From a virus (Duplodnaviria > Caudoviricetes): a DNA stretch of 64,000 bases. Under the pieces are notes generated by a model. The model saw only the letters and a list, made by a program, of their open reading frames with translations. It was not told the origin of the DNA and searched no databases. The DNA is taken from positions 1-64,000 of the IMG/VR virus record IMGVR_UViG_3300028586_000001; one strand, 5' to 3'. Positions 3,861 to 55,537 of this stretch are shown one piece after another. How positions within the stretch are numbered: the stretch's first letter is position 1; every line of letters begins with the position of its first letter. The position numbers and the translations under genes are program-made.

Positions 3861-4360
3861 TTCATCATCTCCATGTGGGATTTTCCGATGCGGCTGAAAT
3901 GCACCTTCACATACTCTTTAGTCTGACGCAGCGGACCAAGACCCCCATAGTTGACCGGACGCAGTTTGAGCATTCCACCCTCAATCTTCCAGGCATAAAA
4001 GTCATGGTGGTGTGAGGTGTTGGCAAGCCATAGAGTCTGGCCAAGTTTGGCTCCGTTGAGCTTCCCGGCATTGCTGGCCATCGCGTACTGGATGGCCCCA
4101 ACGTCACCCTTACCAAGTGGTTCCTCCGTGGGAAACTTCTTCTCAGGGAAGACACCCTCTACGAAGGTGGTGTCAGGGTTGCCCGCACTCAGTCGAAAAT
4201 TTGCGACGAAGTCACCGGAATACTGCGGGGATATCTTCGCGGCCTGACGCAGCGAGACCCACATCAGGGCAATCGCAGCTTTCAGGACTTCAGCCTCGAC
4301 AGCAGCAAGCCACTTGTCGATGTCCTCGAACACCTTGCCGGTGTTGGTTACCTTAAACAT
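3857..4360 (-). CDS. Putative neck/tail-completion protein (HK97 gp10-like)
   Basis: 167 aa, synteny in the head-tail joining block, SPQYSGDFVANF motif. Confidence 0.5.
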   Translation of the reverse strand: MFKVTNTGKVFEDIDKWLAAVEAEVLKAAIALMWVSLRQAAKISPQYSGDFVANFRLSAGNPDTTFVEGVFPEKKFPTEEPLGKGDVGAIQYAMASNAGKLNGAKLGQTLWLANTSHHHDFYAWKIEGGMLKLRPVNYGGLGPLRQTKEYVKVHFSRIGKSHMEMMK

Positions 4361-17666: not shown

Positions 17667-18760
17667 ATCAAAGAATCTTACCTGATAGGCTCGCGCCGTT
17701 GCGCCGCCTGTAGGGTTCTTTGATCCTGTATTTGTAGGGTCGCACAAAACGATGCGACCCGATGCGCCGAAAAAGCCTGATATTTATATCTCGCTGGCGC
17801 ATGTTCTCTAGCCTATCAGTGATAGTCCTACTATCTCCGATTGTGCCGGTGAACGGTTCTTTAACAATGCGCATATGTGTTGCCGATAATCGGAATCTCC
17901 GATAAGCAATTGATCCTACGTGATCTAGTGCCTATCAGTGATGCGCCGATATATGCGGGGCATGTATGCAATGCAATCAATTAAGAATGACCGAACTACT
18001 GTGCAATACAGTAGACGGAATGAAAAGTTCCTACCCTGTGCATTGATGGCATGATTAGGCAGTGGCGTTACCCACTGCTAGAGGCATGCGTAATCGAATG
18101 TCAATAAGCATGTGTACAGGGCAAAGCGTGATAGGAGGAAACCGGAAAAGACTCGCCCCATGAGTAGCATCATGAAGGCTATCACCGGAAAATGGGGTTG
18201 TGCCCATGCCCCTATCACGATGACGACAACACTTAGTGTAGTGCCGCAAGAGCACTCCGCTTTGTGTGGAACGAACTAATTCTGTAGGAGGATGCGCCAG
18301 TCTAGTTAAAAGCTCACTGGCAAGATTCCGCACAGCCTGAATTGCTCCTCGGCATCCAACCAACGATGCGCGGCGGGCGATTCAGGGCTTGTGTCAATTA
18401 ATATTGAACAGTATTAATCGACACACGTAGCAAGCCTTAGTATGAGGGAATTATTGACACTTACGATCTCGATTGTGCTTGCTCAAACGAAACAAAACTC
18501 AAAGTTGTACTGGGATCAAGGATCAATGCAAGTCTGTCCACATAAGTGCGATGGAATTTTGCACAGTATTTAGGCAAGGTTTTGATGCCCCTTCATAGGG
18601 AGTGTCTTATCAAAACAACGTTTTAATACAGGATTGATGCTTTGTAAGTTAGTTTTTTAGGACGAAAATCATTTATTTTTGTTTTCCCTGAATTCATTTC
18701 TTGCCGTTTCCCAGTGTGGCGTGTTCCACTCGCAATTCATCAACCCTGAGCCAAACTACT

Positions 18761-19537
18761 ATGAACCTCGATTTTTTAAACGATTATCCACCTCGTTCCG
18801 TACCATACGGATGCAAGTCCCATCCGATGTATCAGCAGTGGAAGAAGATGCTGGACTCTTGCCAAGTCCAGACCGACAAGTTATTTCCGTTGATCGGTGG
18901 CAAAGGCATCACGGTCATCCATCGCTGGTTCGATTTCATGGAATTCGTCAACGACACCGAAGACGGCTTCCTCAACGGCACCGACCCCAGCGTTCCCGAA
19001 GCACTCGACCGTAAATTCCAGCGCCGTTATTTGCGCCGGATCAATACGAAGTCGGGCTTCAATCCAAAGAACGTGGAATGGGTGACTCGCGCCGAAGGTA
19101 CGGCCATCCAAGCCCGAACCGTTCTCGTTGACACCGTCCACGGCAAGGGCATGACCCTCAAGCAGTTGGCCGCGTACCTGGAAGCGCATCAAGGCGAAGA
19201 CCTCCCGCCTGACGCCACGATTTATACGGCCAAGGTCAAGGTGTACGACGATATGTCGGATCGCTTTGTGTATGACATTCGCAAGATCACGGAAATCCAA
19301 GCGATCAAGTTGCCCGAACTGCGTCGGCGCCACCGCCTGGGCCTGCCACTACTGGCCCCGGTTCGTGATTATGGCAAGGCGAACGACTATGACAACGAGC
19401 GTGAAGCGGCCCTGTGCGCTCGGCTCGACCGTGAGCGACCACCTGTGCAGCACGGCCAACCTCAGTGGGCCAAAGAGCGTGGTATCCCGGCAGCGACATC
19501 GACACTGCCACCGGCACGGCCCGACGCCGTGTTCTAA
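18761..19537 (+). CDS. Degenerate HNH homing-endonuclease-like protein
   Basis: HPMYQQWKKM..C....GGKGITV..RW..F.EF...LRRINTKSGFNPKNVEWVT parallels the phage HNH pattern YGGRGI.V..RW...LDRIDN..Y...NCRW. Confidence 0.6.
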   Translation: MNLDFLNDYPPRSVPYGCKSHPMYQQWKKMLDSCQVQTDKLFPLIGGKGITVIHRWFDFMEFVNDTEDGFLNGTDPSVPEALDRKFQRRYLRRINTKSGFNPKNVEWVTRAEGTAIQARTVLVDTVHGKGMTLKQLAAYLEAHQGEDLPPDATIYTAKVKVYDDMSDRFVYDIRKITEIQAIKLPELRRRHRLGLPLLAPVRDYGKANDYDNEREAALCARLDRERPPVQHGQPQWAKERGIPAATSTLPPARPDAVF

Positions 19538-43496: not shown

Positions 43497-46337
43497 GTGA
43501 CCACCTGGTATTTCCATTACAAACTTACTCACGAGGGCAACGGTGAGTGGAAGTTGGGCATGTCTGATCAACGCGAGCGTACGATCAAGGACCGGCGCCC
43601 AGCGTTCGTCACCATCCTCGACACCGACAACAACTTCGACACCGAGTTGACTGCCGATGAGCTGGCCAAGGTCCACTACCGTGGGCCTTTTTATATCGAC
43701 CTCGATGATGAGGACGCGGCCAACGTCATCGGCCAATTCAAGAAGCTGTTGCGTAAATTACGTGATGAGTACCACGTCGAGCTGGATCAGTTGGCGTTGT
43801 ACATCACGGGCGGCAGGGGTTTCCACATCGAGTTCAACCCGACGATGTTCATGGCCAAGGTCCCACCTCGTGGCATGGCGGCTCTGCCGCTTGTGTACCG
43901 CGAGATGGCCATGGAACTGTTCGTGGACACCCTTGACTTGAACATCTATTCGGCAAAGAAGGGCCGGATGTGGCGTGTCAAGAATATCGAACGAGAGAAG
44001 GACGGCGAGAAGACCGGCCGGTACAAGGTGCAGATCACGGTGCAGGAAGCGCTGGAGATGACGCTGGAGACCTACCAGTCCCTGTGCGTTACCCCACGGC
44101 ACCTGTCACCACCAGCGCCAGCCGAGTACAACCCGGAGCTGGGCCTGATCTTCTCGAAGTCCCAGAGCCGGATCGACCAGGGTCTGAAGCGACGGAAGAA
44201 CGCCAAGGCCGATGCCAACATCCTGGCCAGTTTCGGCGGCAAGGTGCCGCCAACGCTGCTGGCCGTGATGAACGGCGAGGGCCTGGAAGATGGCCAGGGG
44301 TTCCAGGCCATCGCTACGCAACTTGCCATTGCAGCTCACGCGATGAACATGAGCGAGGAGACTTTCCTGGAAGCGTGCGCTGGTATCATCGCCAGCCACA
44401 AGGGCGACAGTGATCGCTACGGTTCTCCAGCCAAGCGGCGGCGTGAGCTGGCCAGGATGTACGGCTACATGTCGGGTAACCCGTCCTACACGTTTTCGGT
44501 CGGCGGTATCAAAAAGATGCTGGCCAAGGATGTCAAAGCTCCTGACCTGGACATGGGCGTCATTGCTACTGAAGAAGGCAGTGATGAGATCGAAGACGAT
44601 GAGATGGTCTTCTCGGTATCGCAAGGTATCAGGATCACCGAGAGCGGGATTTACAAAAAGGGTGAGGAGGGTGTGGTCAAGGTCTCTGCTTTGGGCATGT
44701 CCAATCCCCGTCAGCTCCTGGAACTCGGCACTGGCGAGGTTCATGGTTATGAGGTGGACATCAGCATTGATGGTGGTCCGAAACGTCGCAAGATCGTGAC
44801 CATGGATGCCTTCGCATCTCGTAGCGCTTTCCTTAAATTTACACTCAGTGCAGGCAGTTGCAACATCAGCCTCACGGACGCGCAGATTGGCGCAATCGCT
44901 GACATCTTTCGAGTAAGAACCATGCAAAACAACCAGCAAGTCTATACCGTCAAGCGTGAGGGCCTTGACCTCGTAACAACCCCTGATGGAAAGATCGATG
45001 TGATCTGGGCCGACCAGTTCGGTGTCACCAGTAATTTCGGTATGAACTATCGGCTCACAGGCAGCATGACCGATGACATCCAGTTCCGGACCGACCTGCG
45101 TAACGCCCCTGACCTGGAAGACACGCCGGAAGCTCGTGAGTTTTTCCATCAGCTCTTTAATGTCAACAGGCGCGAGGTGGTGGCAAGGGTCTTCGGATTC
45201 ATGGCTTCGACTTTCTTGTCCCAGATGATCCGGCATGTGTACAACAAGTTCCCGTTCCTCCAGGTCTACGGGCCGGCTGGCGCCGGTAAGTCCGACACGG
45301 TCAAGCTTATGGCCAGGATGCACTACTACCGTCAGGACCCCCTGACATCGTCGGCATTGGACTCGACCAAGTTTGTCTTCGAGGAGATGGCTACTTGCTC
45401 AGGCTCGATTCCTTTCATCCTGGAGGAGTACAAGCCCCGCGAGATGGATCGCCGTTTGCTGGAGAAGTCCAAGGGCATCCTGCGCTCGAACTACAACGGT
45501 GACATCATCGGCAAGGGTTCGGTGCAGGCATCAACAGGCCAGAGTCGACTGACTCTGACTCGTGTGTCGAACCGCTCCCCCATCGTTGTTCTGGGGGAGG
45601 CGATTCTGAGCCAGACGGCGATCCTGGATCGTTGCGTGGCCGTGCCAATCACCAAGGAAGGCAAGCAGGGCCGTCGTGAGGTCTTCGAGCACTGTCAGGC
45701 CAATCGCCAGTACCTGTCGATGTTCGGACGCCGCTGCATTGACGGTGCGCTGGCTGTCAGCCCAGAAGGTATTCGCAAGCAGATCGAAGCGAACATCCGG
45801 CTGGTCCGCGAGAAGGTCGGGGCCAAGGCCGATGACAACGACCGTCCACTGTACAACGTGGCCGTGCTGTTGACTGGTCTGGAGTTTGCCCGTCGTGTCC
45901 TGAAGGATGTTTTTGGCGACGAATTCAACGAGACCATTCAGGTCATGAAGGACTCAGTCACCGAGACTGCTGAGGAGCTGATCCCGAAGGTTGTGTCGGA
46001 AGCCGCCAAGGTGCTCGATGCCATGGCCTACCTGTCACGCTATGGCGACAACGACGCGGTGCGCCTGATCTCTGGCGAGGACTATGTCCTGGACGGTTCG
46101 GCCATCCAGATGCGCCTCAAGAACTGCTTCACGAAGTACGCCAAGCACAAGCGTTCAATGGGGGAGGAGGTGCTGTACGACAGCTACGAGGCGTTCTACA
46201 GCTCCATGACCACTTACCCCGGCACCGTGGATCGGAACTGCCTGTCGTCACCCCTGAAGGACTCGGCTTCGACCGCTGTATTCGAGTTCAGTACGGCCCA
46301 CTTGTCGAAAGACAACGTGGAGGAGTTCAGGCCATAA
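43497..46337 (+). CDS. AEP primase-helicase fusion
   Basis: YIDLDD and TGGRGFHI (AEP motifs I/II), C-terminal YGPAGAGKS P-loop and ILEEY Walker B. Confidence 0.85.
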   Translation: MTTWYFHYKLTHEGNGEWKLGMSDQRERTIKDRRPAFVTILDTDNNFDTELTADELAKVHYRGPFYIDLDDEDAANVIGQFKKLLRKLRDEYHVELDQLALYITGGRGFHIEFNPTMFMAKVPPRGMAALPLVYREMAMELFVDTLDLNIYSAKKGRMWRVKNIEREKDGEKTGRYKVQITVQEALEMTLETYQSLCVTPRHLSPPAPAEYNPELGLIFSKSQSRIDQGLKRRKNAKADANILASFGGKVPPTLLAVMNGEGLEDGQGFQAIATQLAIAAHAMNMSEETFLEACAGIIASHKGDSDRYGSPAKRRRELARMYGYMSGNPSYTFSVGGIKKMLAKDVKAPDLDMGVIATEEGSDEIEDDEMVFSVSQGIRITESGIYKKGEEGVVKVSALGMSNPRQLLELGTGEVHGYEVDISIDGGPKRRKIVTMDAFASRSAFLKFTLSAGSCNISLTDAQIGAIADIFRVRTMQNNQQVYTVKREGLDLVTTPDGKIDVIWADQFGVTSNFGMNYRLTGSMTDDIQFRTDLRNAPDLEDTPEAREFFHQLFNVNRREVVARVFGFMASTFLSQMIRHVYNKFPFLQVYGPAGAGKSDTVKLMARMHYYRQDPLTSSALDSTKFVFEEMATCSGSIPFILEEYKPREMDRRLLEKSKGILRSNYNGDIIGKGSVQASTGQSRLTLTRVSNRSPIVVLGEAILSQTAILDRCVAVPITKEGKQGRREVFEHCQANRQYLSMFGRRCIDGALAVSPEGIRKQIEANIRLVREKVGAKADDNDRPLYNVAVLLTGLEFARRVLKDVFGDEFNETIQVMKDSVTETAEELIPKVVSEAAKVLDAMAYLSRYGDNDAVRLISGEDYVLDGSAIQMRLKNCFTKYAKHKRSMGEEVLYDSYEAFYSSMTTYPGTVDRNCLSSPLKDSASTAVFEFSTAHLSKDNVEEFRP

Positions 46338-47503: not shown

Positions 47504-48229
47504 ATGAAAATTGATGACCTCATCGTCCTCGACACCGAGACCTCTGGTCTCAAGGACCCCATCGGCGTGTGCGAAGTCGGCTTCATCCAGCTCGACCCGG
47601 CTACACTCAGTGAGGTCGGTCGCCACCGCTCGCTGACGGACCCTGAAGTTTCGATCAGTGCTGGTGCGAGCGGCATCCATCGCATCACGAACGACATGGT
47701 CGAGTGCGAGCCTACCCTCGAAGAATATTTCGTTCAGGTGCTGGGCGACCCATTCGCTGGCCGCGACGTGCTGATGGTGGCGCACAACGCCGCCTTCGAC
47801 TTCCCGAAGGTCAAGCAGCACCTTGGCCCCAACCCGGTGTCGCTCTGCACCTTGCTGCTGGCCCGCAAGGTCTGGCCCGAAGCCGAGAACCACAAGCTGG
47901 CCACCCTGAAGTTCATGTTCGGCCTGGGCCGTCGTGATGGCACCTCGCACTCGGCGCTGGACGACGTGGAAGACACCACCGACCTGCTGCGCCTGATCAT
48001 CGCCGAGACTGGCCTGACTATCCCCGAGCTGTGTGTTCTTCAGCACAAGCCGAGCTTCATCGAGATCATGCCGTTCTCGAAGCACAAGGGCCTGCCATTG
48101 AAAGACGTGCCGGTCTCGTTCTGGGTCTGGCTGAGCAAACAGGAAGGCGAAGGCAACGACCGCGATCTGGTCTACAGTGTCAACCAGTTGTACCCCCACA
48201 TCAAACTGAAGGAGAAATACAGTGTCTGA
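47504..48229 (+). CDS. DEDDh 3'-5' exonuclease (DnaQ/ExoX-like)
   Basis: VLDTET, AHNAAFD, HSALDD, C-terminal MPFSKHKG...W.W tail. Confidence 0.9.
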   Translation: MKIDDLIVLDTETSGLKDPIGVCEVGFIQLDPATLSEVGRHRSLTDPEVSISAGASGIHRITNDMVECEPTLEEYFVQVLGDPFAGRDVLMVAHNAAFDFPKVKQHLGPNPVSLCTLLLARKVWPEAENHKLATLKFMFGLGRRDGTSHSALDDVEDTTDLLRLIIAETGLTIPELCVLQHKPSFIEIMPFSKHKGLPLKDVPVSFWVWLSKQEGEGNDRDLVYSVNQLYPHIKLKEKYSV

Positions 48230-48582: not shown

Positions 48583-49263
48583 ATGAGCAATCCGAAAGAT
48601 GCAGTAGGTCGTACCAAGCCACCACTGGGCCTGTTCCCTGTTTCGGCTATCCTCCAGGGCGCAATGGCCCTGTTCGCCGGGAAGACCAAGTACGGTCGTT
48701 CTAACTGGCGTGCAACTCCGGTCCATGCCTCGGTGTACTTCGAGGCTGGCCTACGCCACTTCTACAAGTGGTGGGAAGGTGAGGAGTTTGACCCAGAAGA
48801 CGGCACGCCGCACCTGGGCAACCTGCTGGCCTGCGCCGCTATCATCATCGACGCCAAGGTGTGCGGCACCCTGATCGATGACCGCCAGTTCAACGGCACC
48901 GGCACCCTCGCCAACTTCAACAGCCTGAACTATCTCGTGCCGAAGCTCGAAGCGCAGTACGCTGACAAGGGTCCGAAGCACTACACCATCGCTGACACCG
49001 TTGCCGTCAAGGTCCCGGCCAGTGTCATGATGAGCAAGGTCGTGCAGCCTTCACCTGCTGGCACTGTCACCGACACCGAAGACGGCTACCGGATCGAGAT
49101 TCGACCTAACACTGGTGTGACAGTCCGCGCTGCTGGCAGCATCGACCCAGCCAGCATCGTAGGTAGCAGGCTTGACGCAACCCAGATTCGCGCCCATGCC
49201 CTGCACCTTGACGAAAGCCGTATGTTTGTCGGTGGCCTGCCGTTCGCTGGGGGCAAAGCGTGA
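48583..49263 (+). CDS. dATP/dGTP diphosphohydrolase-like (DUF5664) protein
   Basis: NPKD..G..K, GKTKYG..NW, RH...W..GE..DPE.G.PHL. Confidence 0.8.
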   Translation: MSNPKDAVGRTKPPLGLFPVSAILQGAMALFAGKTKYGRSNWRATPVHASVYFEAGLRHFYKWWEGEEFDPEDGTPHLGNLLACAAIIIDAKVCGTLIDDRQFNGTGTLANFNSLNYLVPKLEAQYADKGPKHYTIADTVAVKVPASVMMSKVVQPSPAGTVTDTEDGYRIEIRPNTGVTVRAAGSIDPASIVGSRLDATQIRAHALHLDESRMFVGGLPFAGGKA

Positions 49264-49550
49264 GCGACATCCAAGAGAACGACGAGCTGAGCCGCACTGA
49301 CCCTATCGCACAGGGTTCCGAGATCGCCATGCGAGTGGCCGACGCTGGTGTGCGCCGCGTCCAGGCCGCTGTCGCACCTGAGCGTATCCCTGATGGCAAC
49401 GGTGGCAGTGTCCCCCAGGTTGCTGATGCCGATGGCAAATATCCGCAACCGGACTGCATCGAATGCGAAGACCCTATACCCAGTGTGAGGCTCGAAATGG
49501 GGCGCATACGCTGCGTCATTTGCCAGACGCTGAAAGAGAAGCGTCGATAA
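49260..49550 (+). CDS. TraR/DksA C4 zinc-finger protein
   Basis: CIECEDPIP.VR......CVICQ...E, plus DPI in the N-terminal helix. Confidence 0.8.
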   Translation: MSDIQENDELSRTDPIAQGSEIAMRVADAGVRRVQAAVAPERIPDGNGGSVPQVADADGKYPQPDCIECEDPIPSVRLEMGRIRCVICQTLKEKRR

Positions 49551-49556
49551 CACCAG

Positions 49557-49580
49557 AGACCGCAAACCAGCGGTCTTTTC
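49557..49580 (+). terminator. Probable intrinsic terminator
   Basis: AGACCGC-N6-GCGGTCT then TTTC. Confidence 0.6.
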
Positions 49581-49594
49581 AATAGGAGAACACC

Positions 49595-50959
49595 ATGCAA
49601 CCACAAACCCGCCTCATCGTTGATCTGTCATCGATCCTGTGGTCCTGCCTCCTGGTAGGCAAGGACATCGAGTTCGGCCGTCAGGTCATGTTCGCCCCTG
49701 AAGCTGAACCCGGTCAGGAACCGAAGGAGCCGAAGTCGTTCCAGGTCAACAGCGCCATCTTCGGCTACGAGAACGTCGTCAACCACTTCGTGTCGGTGCT
49801 CAACCGCTTTGAGTTGGCCCCGATGGACATGGTCCTTGTGGTCGAGGGCATTAACACGAAGGCGCTGCGTCAGTCGATTCTGCCGCGCTACAAAGCAGGT
49901 CGTGACCGCCCTGATGACTGCTATGTCGAGTTCCAAAAGCTGCGCGAGATGATCGTCAGCACCTTCACGGGTCTCGGCGCCATCGCGGTCACCCAGGACG
50001 GTATCGAGAGCGACGACGTGATCACGTACCTCTGCCGTGTCCTGCCGGGTCGTAAGATCATCGACTCCAACGACGGCGACCTCTGCTACAACATCTCGGA
50101 CGGCAGCGTGCCTACCGAGGGTGTTTCGGTCTGGAAGATGAGCAAGGGCATGGAGCTGACCGAGAACCCATACGGCCCGTTCACTTGCCAGTACATCCCG
50201 CTGTACAAGGCCATCGTCGGTGACACCGGCGACAAGATTCCCGGTGCCAAGGGCTTCGGTGAGAAGACTTGGCTGGACTTCCTGTGCAACTTCGATGAGA
50301 CCAACATGGGCGAGATTCAGGACCTCATCAAGGGCAAGCGGTTGCACGAGCTGGCTGACGATGTCCCTACCTTCAAGCCGTTCCAGAAGCTGATCGACAA
50401 CGCCGACATGGTGTGGCGCTCGTTCCAGTGCTCGAAGCTGTACCCCGAGATCATCAACACTACCCGCAAGCCGTTGGTCTGGACCCCAGGTATGGTGCGC
50501 CCGCGTCACACGTTCGATGACGACCGAATCAAGCACTGGGCAGGCCAGACGCGGCTGGTGCACGCCGGGAATTACACCGACGCCGTCAAGTGGATGAAGG
50601 GGTTCCTTGCCGAGTCCCCGTTCATCTCGTTCGATATCGAGACCTCGTCCAACGACACCGCTGACCAGTGGCTGGCCACCGCCAAGACCAAGTCCAACGA
50701 GTCCAAGGATGCCGAGGGCGTTGACGTGTTCGGTGCCGAGCTGTGTTCGTTTGCGCTGACGTTCGGTCGCAACATGCAGTACACGCTGTTCTTCACCGTC
50801 AGCCACGTCGAGACCGACAAGGTCAAGAACATCACGAAAACTCAGGCGAAGGCGGTGCTGGAGCTGCTGCCGAAGTCCAAGGTAAAGGCGATCCAGAACG
50901 TGTCGTTCGAGTTGCCTATCGTGATGGAAGAACTGGGTGAGCTGGAGGAAGCAGAATGA
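49595..50959 (+). CDS. polA: DNA polymerase I N-terminal half: 5'-3' flap exonuclease plus ExoI/ExoII of the proofreading domain
   Basis: IVDLSS, IESDDVI, SNDGDL, GDTGDKIPGAKGFGEKT (H3TH), then SFDIETS (ExoI) and QNVSFE (ExoII), stopping 14 codons after the ExoII Glu. Confidence 0.85.
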   Translation: MQPQTRLIVDLSSILWSCLLVGKDIEFGRQVMFAPEAEPGQEPKEPKSFQVNSAIFGYENVVNHFVSVLNRFELAPMDMVLVVEGINTKALRQSILPRYKAGRDRPDDCYVEFQKLREMIVSTFTGLGAIAVTQDGIESDDVITYLCRVLPGRKIIDSNDGDLCYNISDGSVPTEGVSVWKMSKGMELTENPYGPFTCQYIPLYKAIVGDTGDKIPGAKGFGEKTWLDFLCNFDETNMGEIQDLIKGKRLHELADDVPTFKPFQKLIDNADMVWRSFQCSKLYPEIINTTRKPLVWTPGMVRPRHTFDDDRIKHWAGQTRLVHAGNYTDAVKWMKGFLAESPFISFDIETSSNDTADQWLATAKTKSNESKDAEGVDVFGAELCSFALTFGRNMQYTLFFTVSHVETDKVKNITKTQAKAVLELLPKSKVKAIQNVSFELPIVMEELGELEEAE

Positions 50960-51351
50960 CCTTCGAGCTGAACATCCCGGCTACTGTTGCGATTGTGTTC
51001 TTCGTCATCGCCTGTGGGATGATCATGTGGGAGAAGCCTTTCCTGGCCTGCATCTCAATGATCTTCACGGTTGTTTCTGGCATCACCTACTGCGAGGGTC
51101 GCCCGGAAGCCGTTGCTGAGCGGAAGGCTGATGCAGAAGCAGCCCGCCGTGCTGCGATCCCGCATGTGATCCGCGAAGCTGATGGCTGCAAGGTGTATCA
51201 GTTCCGGGCCAACGGCCTGGAGCATTACTTTACCCGCTGCCCTGACTCGGTCACGACCGACCGCCACTACCAGACGAATGAAAAGTGCGGGAAGAACTGC
51301 ACCAAGACCATCGACCACGTCGAGACCATCGTCACAAAGGAGCAACCATGA
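50956..51351 (+). CDS. Membrane-anchored Cys-containing protein (polA insert 1)
   Basis: Two N-terminal TMs, GGAGG RBS inside the polA-N 3' end, ATGA overlap. Confidence 0.7.
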   Translation: MTFELNIPATVAIVFFVIACGMIMWEKPFLACISMIFTVVSGITYCEGRPEAVAERKADAEAARRAAIPHVIREADGCKVYQFRANGLEHYFTRCPDSVTTDRHYQTNEKCGKNCTKTIDHVETIVTKEQP

Positions 51352-51929
51352 CCCCAGCATGCAAGGAAGTCCTCGACTACATCGACAAAGAAGGTTGTGG
51401 TGTCACCCTCATGACGCTCTACAAGTTTCTGCCGGACCTTGACCAGGCTGACATCAGGGTCGCCACTCGCACGCTCTACGAGACCATGCGTGTCGCACGT
51501 ATCTCGGTCAAGGGCGACAACGACCGCCTGTACTACGTGTTCTTCTCGCTGTATATCAGGTCAACGAACTCGTACCAGCAACTTGACCCGAATGTGATGC
51601 CCTCGCCAGTGGCGCTGCCTGTGCCATCGCCAGTGGCGCTGCCTGTGCCGTCGCCAGTGGCGTCCGAGCCTGAACTGACAGAACCTATGCGCCAAGCCCT
51701 GATCGAGCGCCTGGAGGCCGATCTGGCGGTCCCTGAACGCCGTGGCGTAGAGCGCCGTGGCGTAGAGCGCCGCACTCTGACCGCCTTGGAAGTCATCGAC
51801 CGTTGGAAGCTCAGCTACCGGCTCTCCCGCATCATCGAGATCATCAGCACTGCCAGGAAGGTGCAGTTGACCAAGTCGGATGCGGTGTCGGTGGCCAAGT
51901 TGATCCGTGAACATGTCCGGGGGCAGTGA
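51348..51929 (+). CDS. wHTH-like protein with tandem repeats (polA insert 2)
   Basis: AAGGAG RBS, PSPVALPV and ERRGV repeats, C-terminus loosely DUF3310-like. Confidence 0.65.
   Translation: MTPACKEVLDYIDKEGCGVTLMTLYKFLPDLDQADIRVATRTLYETMRVARISVKGDNDRLYYVFFSLYIRSTNSYQQLDPNVMPSPVALPVPSPVALPVPSPVASEPELTEPMRQALIERLEADLAVPERRGVERRGVERRTLTALEVIDRWKLSYRLSRIIEIISTARKVQLTKSDAVSVAKLIREHVRGQ
51600..51662 (+). repeat. 24-bp in-frame tandem repeat x2.6
   Basis: CCnTCGCCAGTGGCGCTGCCTGTG at 51600, 51624 and partial at 51648. Confidence 0.9.
51738..51772 (+). repeat. 15-bp in-frame tandem repeat x2.3
   Basis: CGCCGTGGCGTAGAG at 51738, 51753 and partial at 51768. Confidence 0.9.
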
Positions 51930-52288
51930 TGGCTATTGACTTTGTACGACAGGCTGTTGCAAGGACCCTCAAGGTGCCACTGTCCAACGTGGGTCGATGG
52001 GATGTAACCGCGAGCCAGAACAGCCATGCGGTAGTTGGGTCCACTCTGCCGGGCATGCTAGATGCCGCCATGACCGTAAAGCTCAATGGCCCTGTAAAGG
52101 ACCTGTCCCGCTTTTTGTCACGAGACATCTGTGGAAGTGCGGTCATCGTGAGTATCGACCCCTGCTTTGACCCCCTTCAGGTGGAGGTTAGCCTTCAGCT
52201 CCTGTACGGAAAGGAGACACAGCATATTTTCAAAGCCCTGGCCCAGATGTTCCGAATCCGGGGCAAACAACCGAAGCGGAGGAAGTGA
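51926..52288 (+). CDS. Hypothetical protein (polA insert 3)
   Basis: 120 aa, GTGA/TGATG coupling at both ends. Confidence 0.55.
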   Translation: MMAIDFVRQAVARTLKVPLSNVGRWDVTASQNSHAVVGSTLPGMLDAAMTVKLNGPVKDLSRFLSRDICGSAVIVSIDPCFDPLQVEVSLQLLYGKETQHIFKALAQMFRIRGKQPKRRK

Positions 52289-52749
52289 TGGCTAAGATGA
52301 CTGAACTGACCCCCAACGAGCTGGCCACGCTGCTGATCCTGAAGGAGAAGGGGCCGTTCCCCAACCCTTCGGCGGTGGGTTTCCTGCTGCACGAGAAGAT
52401 CGAGGGGGACAAGAAGCCCAACCCCTCGCCGCAGGGCATGGCTCTGTTCGCGGGTAAGTTCCTAAGCTCCCTTCGCAGTAAGGACCTTGCCGATAACTAC
52501 CGGAGCTGGAGGATCACCAGCGAAGGCTCTGCCTACCTGGAGTACCTGGAGAACAAGGACTTCACCCTTGACGTTCACCGGGTTGCCCGTGATGGTAGTG
52601 ATTGGTGCGTTCGCTGCCCACACTGCAAGGAGGTCGTCTACCTCCCGTCCGGTTCGGTCCTGGGCGAACAATTCCACCACAACACCTCGAACGGCTGCGG
52701 TAGCTGGTTCCAGGTTTCTTCCGACGCGAAGGTGCTCCATGGTCTCTGA
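52285..52749 (+). CDS. wHTH-like plus zinc-ribbon protein (polA insert 4)
   Basis: GGAGG RBS, CPHC and H...C motifs. Confidence 0.65.
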   Translation: MMAKMTELTPNELATLLILKEKGPFPNPSAVGFLLHEKIEGDKKPNPSPQGMALFAGKFLSSLRSKDLADNYRSWRITSEGSAYLEYLENKDFTLDVHRVARDGSDWCVRCPHCKEVVYLPSGSVLGEQFHHNTSNGCGSWFQVSSDAKVLHGL

Positions 52750-55027
52750 CATTACCAACTACCGGGGCTTCATGGCCAACGTCCACGACACGAAGATCAT
52801 GTCGTCGTATGTGGATGAGAACTTCAGCAACGGCCTGAAGCAGAACTCCAAGCTGTACCTGGGCTACGAACAGGTGTCGTATGACGATGTGACCACCAAG
52901 ACCGGCACGCTGGCCGACCTGCCCCCAGGTGGCCGGATCACCAAGGACGAGCACTGCATCGACATCGAAGCCCTGCGCGACATGGCCCCGAAGAAGCAGG
53001 CTGCATGGCTTGCCAAGCGTGGCTACTCGGACGTTTACGAAGCGGTCGAAGCCCATCGCAACCGCACCGTGTCCAAGCAGTACCGCATGAACGAGTTGCG
53101 CGCTGAAGACGTGCTCGACTACGGGGCCGATGACACCATCTGCACCAGCGCTCTGTACAACTTCTACCGGCTGATGATGGAAGTCGAAGGCACGTTCGGT
53201 GTCTACGAGAAGGTCGAGGTCAAACCCTCCTACATGACCGCCCTGTCGTATGTGCAGGGTGCGAACGTGTCGGTGGAGCGCCTGCGTGAGCTGGAGCGGG
53301 CCGACGACAAGGTCTTCGAGAAGGCCCGGACTACACTGACTGAAGTCCTGCTGAAGAAGGGCATCCTTGACCAGATGTGGAAGCCATTCCTTGAATGGAC
53401 TGCTGCCGGTGTCAAGGATGCCTGCGAGGACTTGTTCGGCTTCCGGCCTGAGTCGATGCGGCGCAAGCCCGATGCACTGGCCATGGACATCATGACCGAG
53501 TCCGGTACTGGCGAGGGCGATATGTCCTTGGTCAACTTCTGTGACGCTGTCAAGCGCCAGGATGTGAAGTTCATCAACGCACTGTTGCTGACGAAGTACA
53601 AGCAGGACCCCGGCCTGGACGTGAACTCGGCCAAGAAGATGAAGGTCTTCATGTACGACATCCTGAAGCTGCCGATCCGCGTGACATCGAAGCTGACCGA
53701 GATCAACTACAAGTTCGACCGTGAGCTGGTCAAGGCTGTCCAGAAGTTCAAGAACGCCCTGATGAAGGGAGAGGAGCCGAAGCTGACGCCAGAGGAGTGG
53801 AAGCTGGTGCGCACCAAGGCATCGACCGATGACACCGCTGTTGACTTCGCCCTGATGTACGACAAGGACACCGACCCTGACCTTGAAGTGATCCTGAACG
53901 CCATCTCGGACATGAAGCGCGTTTCCACCCGGCGCGGCCTGTACTACAAGCCGTACCCATACCTGAAGCACTGGAAGGACGGGAAGATTCACTCGTCCAT
54001 GAACCAGTGCGCGACGGTGACGCGCCGCTACTCATCGTCAGGCCCGAACCTTCAACAGCTCCCGAAGAAGGGTGAGGGTGTGAAGATTCGAGAGATGATC
54101 ATCCCGCACCACAAGGATGCGGTCATCGTGTCCCTTGACTTCTCTGGCCAGGAGCTGCGACTGGCAGCGCACATGTCGCAGGACAAGAACATGCTGGCTT
54201 GCTACATCGGTGACAACCTGAAGGACCCGCACTCGATCACTGCGGCCGGCGCCATGCTCAAGAAATGGGGCAAGGACAAGGTCGATGAGTTCAAGTTGCT
54301 CGTTGGCGCTGACAAGTTCAGTGGCACCAATGAGGAAGTCGAGTACACCGTCTTCATCAAGCTGCGCAAGTGGGATGACGATGCCATCGCCAAGCTGGCT
54401 GACGATCTGCGAAAGGTCGCCAAGAACGTGAACTTCGGCGCGCAGTACGACGCCCAAGCACTGACACTGGCATACACGATTGTCATCCCGGTCAAGGACG
54501 CACAGGACTTCCTGGATGCCCGTGAGAAGATGTTCCCCGGTGTCAGTGAATGGAAAGACGACGTGCGCAAGCGTGTCGAGCGCACCGGCCACGCGATGAC
54601 GCTGATGGGTGCACGTCGCCACCTTGCCAAGCTGCTCCGTGACCGCTCGACGGCCAGCAAAGCCGGTCGCCAGGGTCCGAACTTCGAGATTCAGGGTTCG
54701 TCGGCAGAGCAGACCAAGCTGGCCATGGGCGAGGTGTGGGACAGTGGTGTGATGTTCGACTACGACTGCCAGTTCGTTGCACCAGTGCACGATGAGCTGG
54801 TGTTCTCGATCCACAAGGATCATGCGGTCGATGCGATCCGCATCATCCATGCCTGCATGACCAAGCAGTACCACGACATGACCGTACCCTGCATGTCATC
54901 GATCTCGCTGGGTCCGAATTTCGGTGAGCAGATCGAGTGCGGTGACTGGTTCATCGAAGACAACATCCGTAAGGCCCTGGACACCGTGTTCTCCAAGGCC
55001 AAGGAAAAAGAACTGGAGGCAGCATGA
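52739..55027 (+). CDS. polA: DNA polymerase I C-terminal half: rest of the proofreading domain plus family-A polymerase
   Basis: NVHDTKIM, YGADD (ExoIII), DFSGQELR (motif A), RKVAKNVNFGAQY (motif B, Phe at the 762-equivalent), VHDEL (motif C). Start placed at ATG 52739 after GAAGGT. Confidence 0.92.
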   Translation: MVSDITNYRGFMANVHDTKIMSSYVDENFSNGLKQNSKLYLGYEQVSYDDVTTKTGTLADLPPGGRITKDEHCIDIEALRDMAPKKQAAWLAKRGYSDVYEAVEAHRNRTVSKQYRMNELRAEDVLDYGADDTICTSALYNFYRLMMEVEGTFGVYEKVEVKPSYMTALSYVQGANVSVERLRELERADDKVFEKARTTLTEVLLKKGILDQMWKPFLEWTAAGVKDACEDLFGFRPESMRRKPDALAMDIMTESGTGEGDMSLVNFCDAVKRQDVKFINALLLTKYKQDPGLDVNSAKKMKVFMYDILKLPIRVTSKLTEINYKFDRELVKAVQKFKNALMKGEEPKLTPEEWKLVRTKASTDDTAVDFALMYDKDTDPDLEVILNAISDMKRVSTRRGLYYKPYPYLKHWKDGKIHSSMNQCATVTRRYSSSGPNLQQLPKKGEGVKIREMIIPHHKDAVIVSLDFSGQELRLAAHMSQDKNMLACYIGDNLKDPHSITAAGAMLKKWGKDKVDEFKLLVGADKFSGTNEEVEYTVFIKLRKWDDDAIAKLADDLRKVAKNVNFGAQYDAQALTLAYTIVIPVKDAQDFLDAREKMFPGVSEWKDDVRKRVERTGHAMTLMGARRHLAKLLRDRSTASKAGRQGPNFEIQGSSAEQTKLAMGEVWDSGVMFDYDCQFVAPVHDELVFSIHKDHAVDAIRIIHACMTKQYHDMTVPCMSSISLGPNFGEQIECGDWFIEDNIRKALDTVFSKAKEKELEAA

Positions 55028-55116
55028 GTTGGTTAATATTTTTTCTGGTCGTCGGAATGTTCGGCATCGGCTTCGCAGTCGGCTGGATGGTAAGGGGTGA
55101 TTATGAAACAAAGTGA
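55024..55116 (+). CDS. 30-aa single-TM peptide
   Basis: Hand-translated MSWLIFFLVVGMFGIGFAVGWMVRGDYETK, GGAGG RBS, ATGA overlap. Confidence 0.5.
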   Translation: MSWLIFFLVVGMFGIGFAVGWMVRGDYETK

Positions 55117-55537
55117 TGCCGAGCAGGAGCTGCGGGACCTCGGCTCTCACTACAACATCCGGGTCTGGGAGGTGTCCAACGGTCACTTCAAAGTCCAGGA
55201 CGGGGAGGGCCAGATCATTAACTACTGGCCCAACTCGAAGAAGCGCACGATGCACATTCAGGACACGAAGTGGTCCCGTGAGCAGTGCGAACCGATCGAT
55301 GCCCTGCGCCTCGCCGCGCTCGGTGCCGATGGCATGAAGCGTCAGGCACCGATCCCGCTCAAGCGAGCGTTGCGGGCGGTGCCGAAGACGCCGAAGCAGA
55401 AAGAAAAGGAGCGGGAGCTGCGGCGCCCTGCTGGTGAACGCATCAGCAAGGATGAGTACGCTTTCCGTGAAACCACCTACGATGAGAAGGCAGCAGCCAT
55501 CTCGGCAATGCCAGCACAAGGAGCACCATGGCCCTAA
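55103..55537 (+). CDS. Hypothetical protein
   Basis: 144 aa, AAGGGG RBS. Confidence 0.6.
   Translation: MKQSDAEQELRDLGSHYNIRVWEVSNGHFKVQDGEGQIINYWPNSKKRTMHIQDTKWSREQCEPIDALRLAALGADGMKRQAPIPLKRALRAVPKTPKQKEKERELRRPAGERISKDEYAFRETTYDEKAAAISAMPAQGAPWP

Follow-up and report, generated by a model that had tools for sequence, protein, structure and literature searches.

In LUZ24-like phages (Bruynoghevirus), the family-A DNA polymerase PolA is encoded in pieces, namely gp25 ("DNA polymerase exonuclease subunit"), gp34 ("part II"), and gp36 (PMC3890496), and S-SBP1-like T7-type cyanophages carry an exonuclease/polymerase fission of PolA, which was called the first split seen in this enzyme (Czernecki et al. 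2023, PMC10201439). Other "genes in pieces" are nrdA/mobE of Aeromonas phage Aeh1 and gene 43 (PolB), present as 43A/43B in phages 25 and 44RR (Edgell et al. 2010, PMC2988022). The locus described here is polA of a Caudoviricetes phage (Duplodnaviria), contained in a stretch of 64,000 nucleotides (nt; hereafter, the window), positions 1–64,000 of the virus record IMGVR_UViG_3300028586_000001 (IMG/VR), which is complete at 86,761 bp and bears direct terminal repeats. The gene is divided into two open reading frames (ORFs), ORF1 and ORF2, by a cut within the 3'–5' exonuclease (proofreading) domain, with four further ORFs (A–D) in the gap. It is a conserved intradomain split of PolA, the product of which is most probably a two-chain enzyme.

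Precedents exist for PolA in pieces with small ORFs between, for exonuclease/polymerase fission, and for a split of gp43 and of NrdA. The LUZ24-like phages likewise have separate same-strand family-A genes with small ORFs between them, including those of membrane proteins (8 in LUZ24 and 10 in UFV-P2; PMC3890496). However, gp25 of LUZ24 has all three Exo motifs (DLE, HNILDYD, and YCLQD), so that its cut lies after the exonuclease domain and that of the window inside it; in addition, LUZ24 belongs to another PolA lineage without a fused 5'–3' nuclease, and has an annotated endonuclease among the intervening genes. The LUZ24 polA (locus L180, 5000–7306) appears three-piece (gp25, gp34, and gp36), with gp35 (endonuclease VII) between gp34 and gp36, and the annotated endonuclease gp30 between gp25 and gp34. 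As in the window, PolA of the S-SBP1-like phages is divided between two genes, adjacent in their case, in a clade with uninterrupted close relatives, and the predicted complex superposes on the fused enzyme with the new termini exposed to solvent (PMC10201439); that split is between domains and originated in a +1 frameshift, with overlapping ORFs and without inserted genes, whereas the present one is inside the DEDD domain with zero to four inserted genes. Aeh1 nrdA and gp43 are likewise essential enzymes cut in a critical region, the halves of which were shown to co-purify and to be active; between the halves, some phages have a homing endonuclease and related ones have other sequence, mirroring the HNH genes of two lineages described below (L008 and L087) versus the window clade, and the gene may already have been split when the endonuclease invaded (PMC2988022). 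They differ in comprising a class I ribonucleotide reductase, a family-B polymerase, and MobE/Seg endonucleases, whereas the insert of the window has no detectable endonuclease and the two-chain enzyme is a predicted one. The OM43 phages MEP401 and MEP402 likewise have a DNA polymerase split into two genes, with inserted ORFs without known homology and with the split present in most metagenomic relatives, but are of a different lineage related to Zobellviridae (PMC10580990). In the open-access literature, no description was found of a cut between ExoII and ExoIII of a PolA. What appears new here is the cut within the DEDD domain between catalytic motifs, together with the occurrence of clade-fixed and sporadic HNH-borne forms at the same loop.

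The two halves of polA were identified by profile and structural matches (coordinates of all features are given in Table 1). ORF1 scored 36.3 bits against PF02739 (cut-off, 34.3; residues 61–181) and 27.5 bits, under the cut-off of 40, against PF01367 (SAM-fold part); it also matches the phrog_107 exonuclease, resembles the Pol I N-domains of 6vde and Taq, and ends with ...MEELGELEEAE. ORF2 scored 209.8 bits against PF00476 (cut-off, 34.3) and matches Klenow and Taq (E, 6e-36). Its N-terminus is MVSDITNYRGFMANVHDT, starting from the ATG at 52739 (MVSDITNYRGF...) with GAAGGTG ahead of it; a longer TTG-started frame from 52487 was rejected as ORF2, because the relatives all begin just before the (W/Y)(R/H)GF motif. 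The four insert ORFs tile the 1779-nt gap and overlap their neighbors by 4 nt (ATGA or GTGA), the last overlapping ORF2 by 11 nt, and all six ORFs are on one strand and stop/start-coupled. The GC content at third codon positions (GC3) of the insert ORFs (0.64–0.79) is like that of the neighboring genes, and the base composition is uniform across both junctions. In a promoter/terminator scan, no promoter-like sites were seen between the six ORFs, and terminator-like sites were at the chance level (5 found, against a shuffle mean of 5.3). Because the ORFs are coupled and co-oriented, without promoter-like or above-chance terminator-like sites between them, they probably share one transcript. Repeats flanking the insert are short, imperfect, and of chance level only, without target-site duplication or terminal inverted repeats. 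An earlier note on this DNA, which had placed the flap nuclease, ExoI, and ExoII in ORF1 and ExoIII with the polymerase in ORF2, and had seen four stop/start-coupled ORFs filling the gap, was right about the locus in every detail.

Uninterrupted homologues define what the break has done to the protein. A blastn search of the region gave no match in 50,697 phage records, and the deposited phage relatives are distant and recognizable at the protein level only; among these, cultured Vibrio phages have one polA of 1326–1364 amino acids (aa) spanning ORF1 and ORF2. Viral, metagenome, and genome collections yielded more than 45 loci in which a single open frame of 1075–1265 codons (a gene of ~1150 aa) is joined exactly at the break, with the ORF1-like and ORF2-like parts abutting in the same frame. 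The fused loop has the consensus ...FELPVL..WGxxWxDNGWHGFLPNV.DT..., and the two termini of the window combined amount to 5–6 residues more than this loop. The statement in the earlier note that almost nothing is missing between the halves is thus borne out by their alignment to the fused homologues, the balance being a small surplus. The gene order flanking polA is the same in split and fused relatives. A scan of genome collections yielded fused forms only (42–48% identity), and a metagenome scan gave no close relatives among the matches listed. Taken together, ORF1 and ORF2 are a true orthologue of the single-chain phage PolA genes, cut between ExoII and ExoIII. Two fused relatives at 42–43% identity are on contigs assigned to Betaproteobacteria (L164, a Variovorax paradoxus ISL-3 contig; L165, a Methylotenera metagenome-assembled genome), which hints at the host range of the phage group; the GC content of the window (58%) fits.

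The break was located within the exonuclease fold using an AlphaFold2 (AF2) model built from a 27-sequence alignment for the exonuclease segment of one fused relative (predicted local distance difference test score, pLDDT, 90; predicted template-modeling score, pTM, 0.81). This model matches ExnV1, phage G20c Pol I, and Klenow (Foldseek E, 4e-13 to 1e-8). The break maps to the loop 130–144, between the helix 118–129, which starts with the ExoII glutamate (Glu439 of ORF1, equivalent to Glu121 of the model), and the strand 145–147, which contains the DT motif and corresponds to the VHDT strand of ORF2. In agreement with this position, PF01612 is above its cut-off and runs across the junction in the fused relatives, and is not detected on ORF1 or ORF2 alone. 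With the DEDD exonuclease motifs defined as ExoI, DxE, ExoII, Nx2–3[FY]D, and ExoIII, Yx3D, the ExoI DIE and the ExoIII YGADD are invariant, and ExoII reads NVSFE, with glutamate in place of the canonical aspartate family-wide; its FE is conserved across the whole family, all fused forms included. The earlier assignment of ExoI and ExoII to chain 1 and of ExoIII to chain 2 is thus upheld by both motif and AF2 mapping. The cut is not at the boundary of the exonuclease and polymerase domains, which distinguishes the locus from an exonuclease/polymerase split.

A protein search with ORF2 yielded ~20 cluster representatives of 712–762 aa (53–81% identity), and the stand-alone C-halves all begin a few residues before (W/Y/F)(R/H)GF. 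With ORF1, 23 stand-alone N-halves of 441–474 aa were found, ending 7–17 residues after FELP, many of them on contigs equal in length to those bearing C-halves. In a tree of the ORF2 region, the split forms constitute one clade of 24 tips with a support of 1.0, all but one of which are two-gene forms, and the split is old and inherited within the clade. The sole fused member (P0015; 1148 aa) has the junction ...MENLGELDSGKDWHGF, bearing the LGEL tail signature of the split N-halves. Since it keeps this tail, P0015 may be a natural re-fusion; the alternative is a basal retention of the fused form, the support for its nested position being just 0.70–0.82. The content of the gap differs among the members that were read. 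In contrast to the four ORFs of the window, L004 (80% identity, on an independent 86.5-kb contig) has three, namely homologues of ORF A and ORF B and an unrelated Cys-rich ORF of 75 aa, without ORF C and ORF D, and L005 (57% identity) has no insert, the stop of ORF1 and the start of ORF2 overlapping as ATGA. The gap thus behaves as a permissive slot with turnover of its content.

The same loop is interrupted elsewhere in the family. In L008 and L087 (46% identity, outside the clade), one HNH endonuclease gene lies between the polA halves and is coupled to both by overlaps; the two endonucleases belong to phrog_374 (E, 5e-55 and 4e-60, respectively). In the tree, 0.03 substitutions per site separate L087 from a fused sister, a presence/absence pattern typical of homing endonuclease genes. 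Four more short forms (P0070, P0073, P0102, and P0103) have the same starting motif, with fused forms as their sisters, and stand-alone N-halves matching them exist. Based on the HNH-split loci and these short forms, the polA loop has been cut independently several times. As in the Aeh1 nrdA/mobE type, relatives have a contiguous host gene, and the cut lies at a single point with both halves intact; an endonuclease between the halves is absent from the window and present in L008 and L087. Because HNH genes repeatedly occupy this loop in other lineages, a homing-endonuclease invasion may have been the founding event of the split, with about even odds against the alternative, a simple fission by mutation.

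On these grounds, we propose that the replicative family-A polymerase of this ~87-kb phage, comprising 5'–3' nuclease, 3'–5' exonuclease, and polymerase, is encoded as two genes, with the chain broken where a loop connects the ExoII helix to the VHDT strand of the proofreading domain. Chain 1 would supply ExoI and ExoII, and chain 2 would supply ExoIII and the polymerase; the two half-domains would reassemble non-covalently, complementing each other into one DEDD fold. Four lines of evidence make such a two-chain enzyme likely: the clade-wide retention of the split, the invariant catalytic residues, ratios of nonsynonymous to synonymous substitution rates (dN/dS) below 1, and a model of the complex. 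Asp347, Glu349, Phe438, and Glu439 of ORF1 and Tyr128 and Asp132 of ORF2 are invariant in 20–22 split forms. Among the window, L004, and L005, dN/dS is 0.20–0.50, and is 0.29–0.33 for the exonuclease half-domains alone. In the complex model of residues 296–454 of ORF1 with residues 1–200 of ORF2, the strand 430–433 of ORF1 pairs with the strand 14–18 of ORF2; the interface score ipSAE is 0.81, versus 0.00 for the best of three controls, a mark reached by 58 of 80 solved complexes and by 2 of 110 mismatched pairs, and the runs share at least 75% of their contacts, with a partner pLDDT of 81–82. A heterodimeric Pol I whose exonuclease needs both chains, as the earlier note had suggested, is therefore the most likely product on sequence and modeling grounds, while its further idea that chain stoichiometry or the inserted proteins tune proofreading (a "mutator switch") gained no support: the insert varies from zero to four ORFs among relatives, and hence no insert protein is an obligatory partner.

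Several points weigh against the above proposal. The passing score of the complex model signifies compatibility of the chains rather than binding: fragments of a single known fold are expected to pass, and the predictor may have memorized the DEDD fold, to which both chains belong. As for the purifying selection on the two exonuclease halves, a structural requirement of PolA for that domain, rather than catalysis, could account for it. The turnover of the gap was read in three clade members only (the window, L004, and L005). Finally, no nuclease was matched in ORFs A–D with Pfam, PHROGs, Atlas, or fold searches, which makes the endonuclease origin circumstantial for this clade.

Foremost among the other explanations is that proofreading is dead or dispensable, ORF1 being only a flap nuclease and ORF2 an exonuclease-deficient polymerase, with editing by the DnaQ-like DEDDh exonuclease. 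The glutamate of ExoII in place of the canonical aspartate and the presence of a PF00929 exonuclease gene 1.4 kb upstream would fit this explanation, and the conserved fold alone does not prove catalysis, since the exonuclease domain has been reported to be required for the structural stability of PolA even when inactive (PMC10201439). However, this glutamate, from which the earlier note had raised the possibility that proofreading is dead, is family-wide and found in all fused forms; the DEDDh gene, suggested there as a substitute, also stands beside fused polA in L006, L010, and L013, and hence is not a compensation for the split. Furthermore, Asp347, Glu349, Glu439, Tyr128, and Asp132 have stayed invariant in 20–22 split forms at 53–81% identity. 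We consider dead proofreading unlikely. Assembly-conditional proofreading, in which unequal production of the chains, or unequal translation through up to four coupled ORFs, would leave free ORF2 exonuclease-deficient, the subunit ratio would set the fidelity and mutation supply, and ORF C would possibly serve as a polymerase accessory factor, is quite a speculative elaboration of the two-chain enzyme, with little likelihood.

Rejoining at the RNA level, with the 1.78-kb insert being a group I or II intron or a novel splicing element with ORFs, is very unlikely. Group I introns bearing HNH ORFs are classically found in DNA polymerase genes of phages (references cited in PMC10580990), but no Rfam family matched positions 49000–55500 on either strand at E up to 1, and the gap is wholly coding with native GC3 and has two ORFs under purifying selection, its tiling by coupled ORFs leaving no room for a ribozyme core. 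Moreover, ORF1 has its own stop, ORF2 has its own start and Shine-Dalgarno sequence, 5–6 surplus residues lie at the joint, and L005 has nothing between the halves and still has two frames. Rejoining at the level of protein or translation is highly improbable: a split intein would require blocks of at least ~100 aa (N side) and ~35 aa (C side) flanking the break, against the 5–6 surplus residues found, and a ribosomal bypass would have to cross 1779 nt over four translated ORFs. The bypass in T4 gene 60 skips 50 nt, and to our knowledge a bypass of 1779 nt across four translated ORFs has no precedent. The ATGA overlap in L005 would permit a –1 or +2 frameshift fusion in principle; nevertheless, the frames and a start codon with its ribosome-binding site are kept as a separate gene across the clade. 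That no intron, intein, or homing endonuclease is detectable in the insert, as originally reported, is accordingly borne out by Rfam, Pfam, PHROGs, and the alignment of the termini. An assembly artefact or chimeric contig, conceivable for a metagenome-derived virus contig, is excluded for practical purposes by the well-supported single clade of split forms, with the same arrangement and homologous insert genes in the independent 86.5-kb contig at 80% identity, ~20 more two-gene relatives from different sources, and the uniform composition across the junctions.

No Pfam family was matched by ORFs A–D, and phrog_21581 (unknown function) was the only PHROGs match, to residues 93–150 of ORF D (E, 5e-10). 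The homologue of ORF A in L004 is 55% identical and in the same place, with dN/dS of 0.41, and that of ORF B (41%; dN/dS, 0.43) lies directly upstream of ORF2 in L004. Structural leads to winged helix-turn-helix (wHTH) proteins are weak and sub-threshold (Atlas), being the only leads for ORF B (template-modeling score, TM, 0.33–0.39) and reaching TM of 0.41–0.47 for ORF D, whose N-domain has one homologue elsewhere (L174). ORF B contains in-frame tandem repeats at 51598–51662 (three 24-nt units encoding (PVALPVPS)-like repeats) and at 51735–51764 (two 15-nt units encoding ERRGV ERRGV), which suggests that its two domains are joined by a flexible linker capable of expansion.

ORF C has its sole homologues (35–41%) in a distant ~87-kb phage group with fused polA (L175–L179), where they sit 300–500 nt downstream of that gene (around 4000–4350). 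The family, of 115–126 aa with the invariant C-terminal helix LLYGKETQHIFKALAQ of 16 residues, always adjoins polA, downstream when it is fused and within the gap in the window. Because the homologues lie downstream of polA in the fused relatives, ORF C, and hence at least part of the insert, is a resident replication-module gene that has moved into the gap. Its AF2 model (pLDDT, 78) has the order alpha-beta-beta-alpha-beta-beta-alpha without a convincing fold match: an exhaustive structural alignment gave Z up to 6.8 for PilO-like and tail-tube folds, which is the chance range, and a LAGLIDADG nuclease was not called from weak Foldseek rows (E at least 0.015; TM, 0.27–0.33).

The polA-splitting HNH endonuclease of L008, searched against this genome, gave a sole hit, a weak one to an unrelated ORF (18701–19537, 278 aa; HNH-like match over 47 residues, E 7e-4). 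Homologues of this ORF are present in L008 and L178, apart from polA.

The genes of the replication module around polA are all co-oriented. The dATP/dGTP diphosphohydrolase protein (226 aa), encoded shortly upstream of polA, matches the N-terminal domain family PF18909 (E, 4e-25), is conserved in L004, L005, and L010, and may have a role in dNTP pool editing. Such a MazZ-like gene near polA suggested a 2-aminoadenine (Z) genome, which was rejected, because PurZ (PF00709) was not found in the genome.

Table 1. Coordinates of polA, its motifs, the insert ORFs, and neighboring genes in the window
Feature	Position	Strand	Remarks
Primase	43497-46337	+	Replication module, first in listed gene order
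DnaQ-like DEDDh exonuclease	47504-48229	+	PF00929; 1.4 kb upstream of polA N-half
dATP/dGTP diphosphohydrolase N-domain protein	48583-49263	+	Upstream of TraR-like gene
TraR-like zinc finger	49260-49550	+	Weak match, PF01258 E 0.026, below family cut-off
ORF1, polA N-half, 454 aa; 5'-3' flap nuclease and first half of 3'-5' exonuclease domain	49595-50959	+	
ExoI FDIETS (D347, E349), ORF1 residues 346-351	50630..50647	+	Invariant in 22 stand-alone N-halves, conserved in fused forms
ExoII QNVSFE (N435, E439), ORF1 residues 434-439	50894..50911	+	F438 and E439 invariant; N435 nearly so
ORF A, 131 aa, predicted membrane protein with Cys-rich C-terminal part	50956-51351	+	ATGA overlap with ORF1 stop
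ORF B, 193 aa, possible N-terminal winged-helix domain and short tandem-repeat linker	51348-51929	+	
ORF C, 119-120 aa, conserved small protein, invariant C-terminal helix LLYGKETQHIFKALAQ and basic tail	51926-52288	+	
ORF D, 153-154 aa, possible N-terminal wHTH and C-terminal Cys/His-rich domain	52285-52749	+	
ORF2, polA C-half, 762 aa; second half of 3'-5' exonuclease domain and thumb, palm, and fingers	52739-55027	+	
VHDT strand, first conserved element past the break	52781..52792	+	ORF2 D17 and T18 nearly invariant
ExoIII YGADD (Y128, D132), ORF2 residues 128-132	53120..53134	+	Y128, G129, D131, and D132 invariant in 20 stand-alone C-halves

For annotation, both ORFs would be better named as subunits of one polymerase than as an "exonuclease" and a "truncated polymerase". 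For protein engineering, the break may provide a natural split site for fragment complementation of PolA. The DEDD proofreading domain appears to tolerate a chain break between ExoII and ExoIII, which has been kept through the deep divergence of the clade. One loop of this PolA lineage is also a recurrent landing site, for HNH genes elsewhere and for a turnover of small genes in this clade. In phage evolution, PolA thereby joins gp43 and nrdA as a gene with a gap that holds an endonuclease, other sequence, or nothing.

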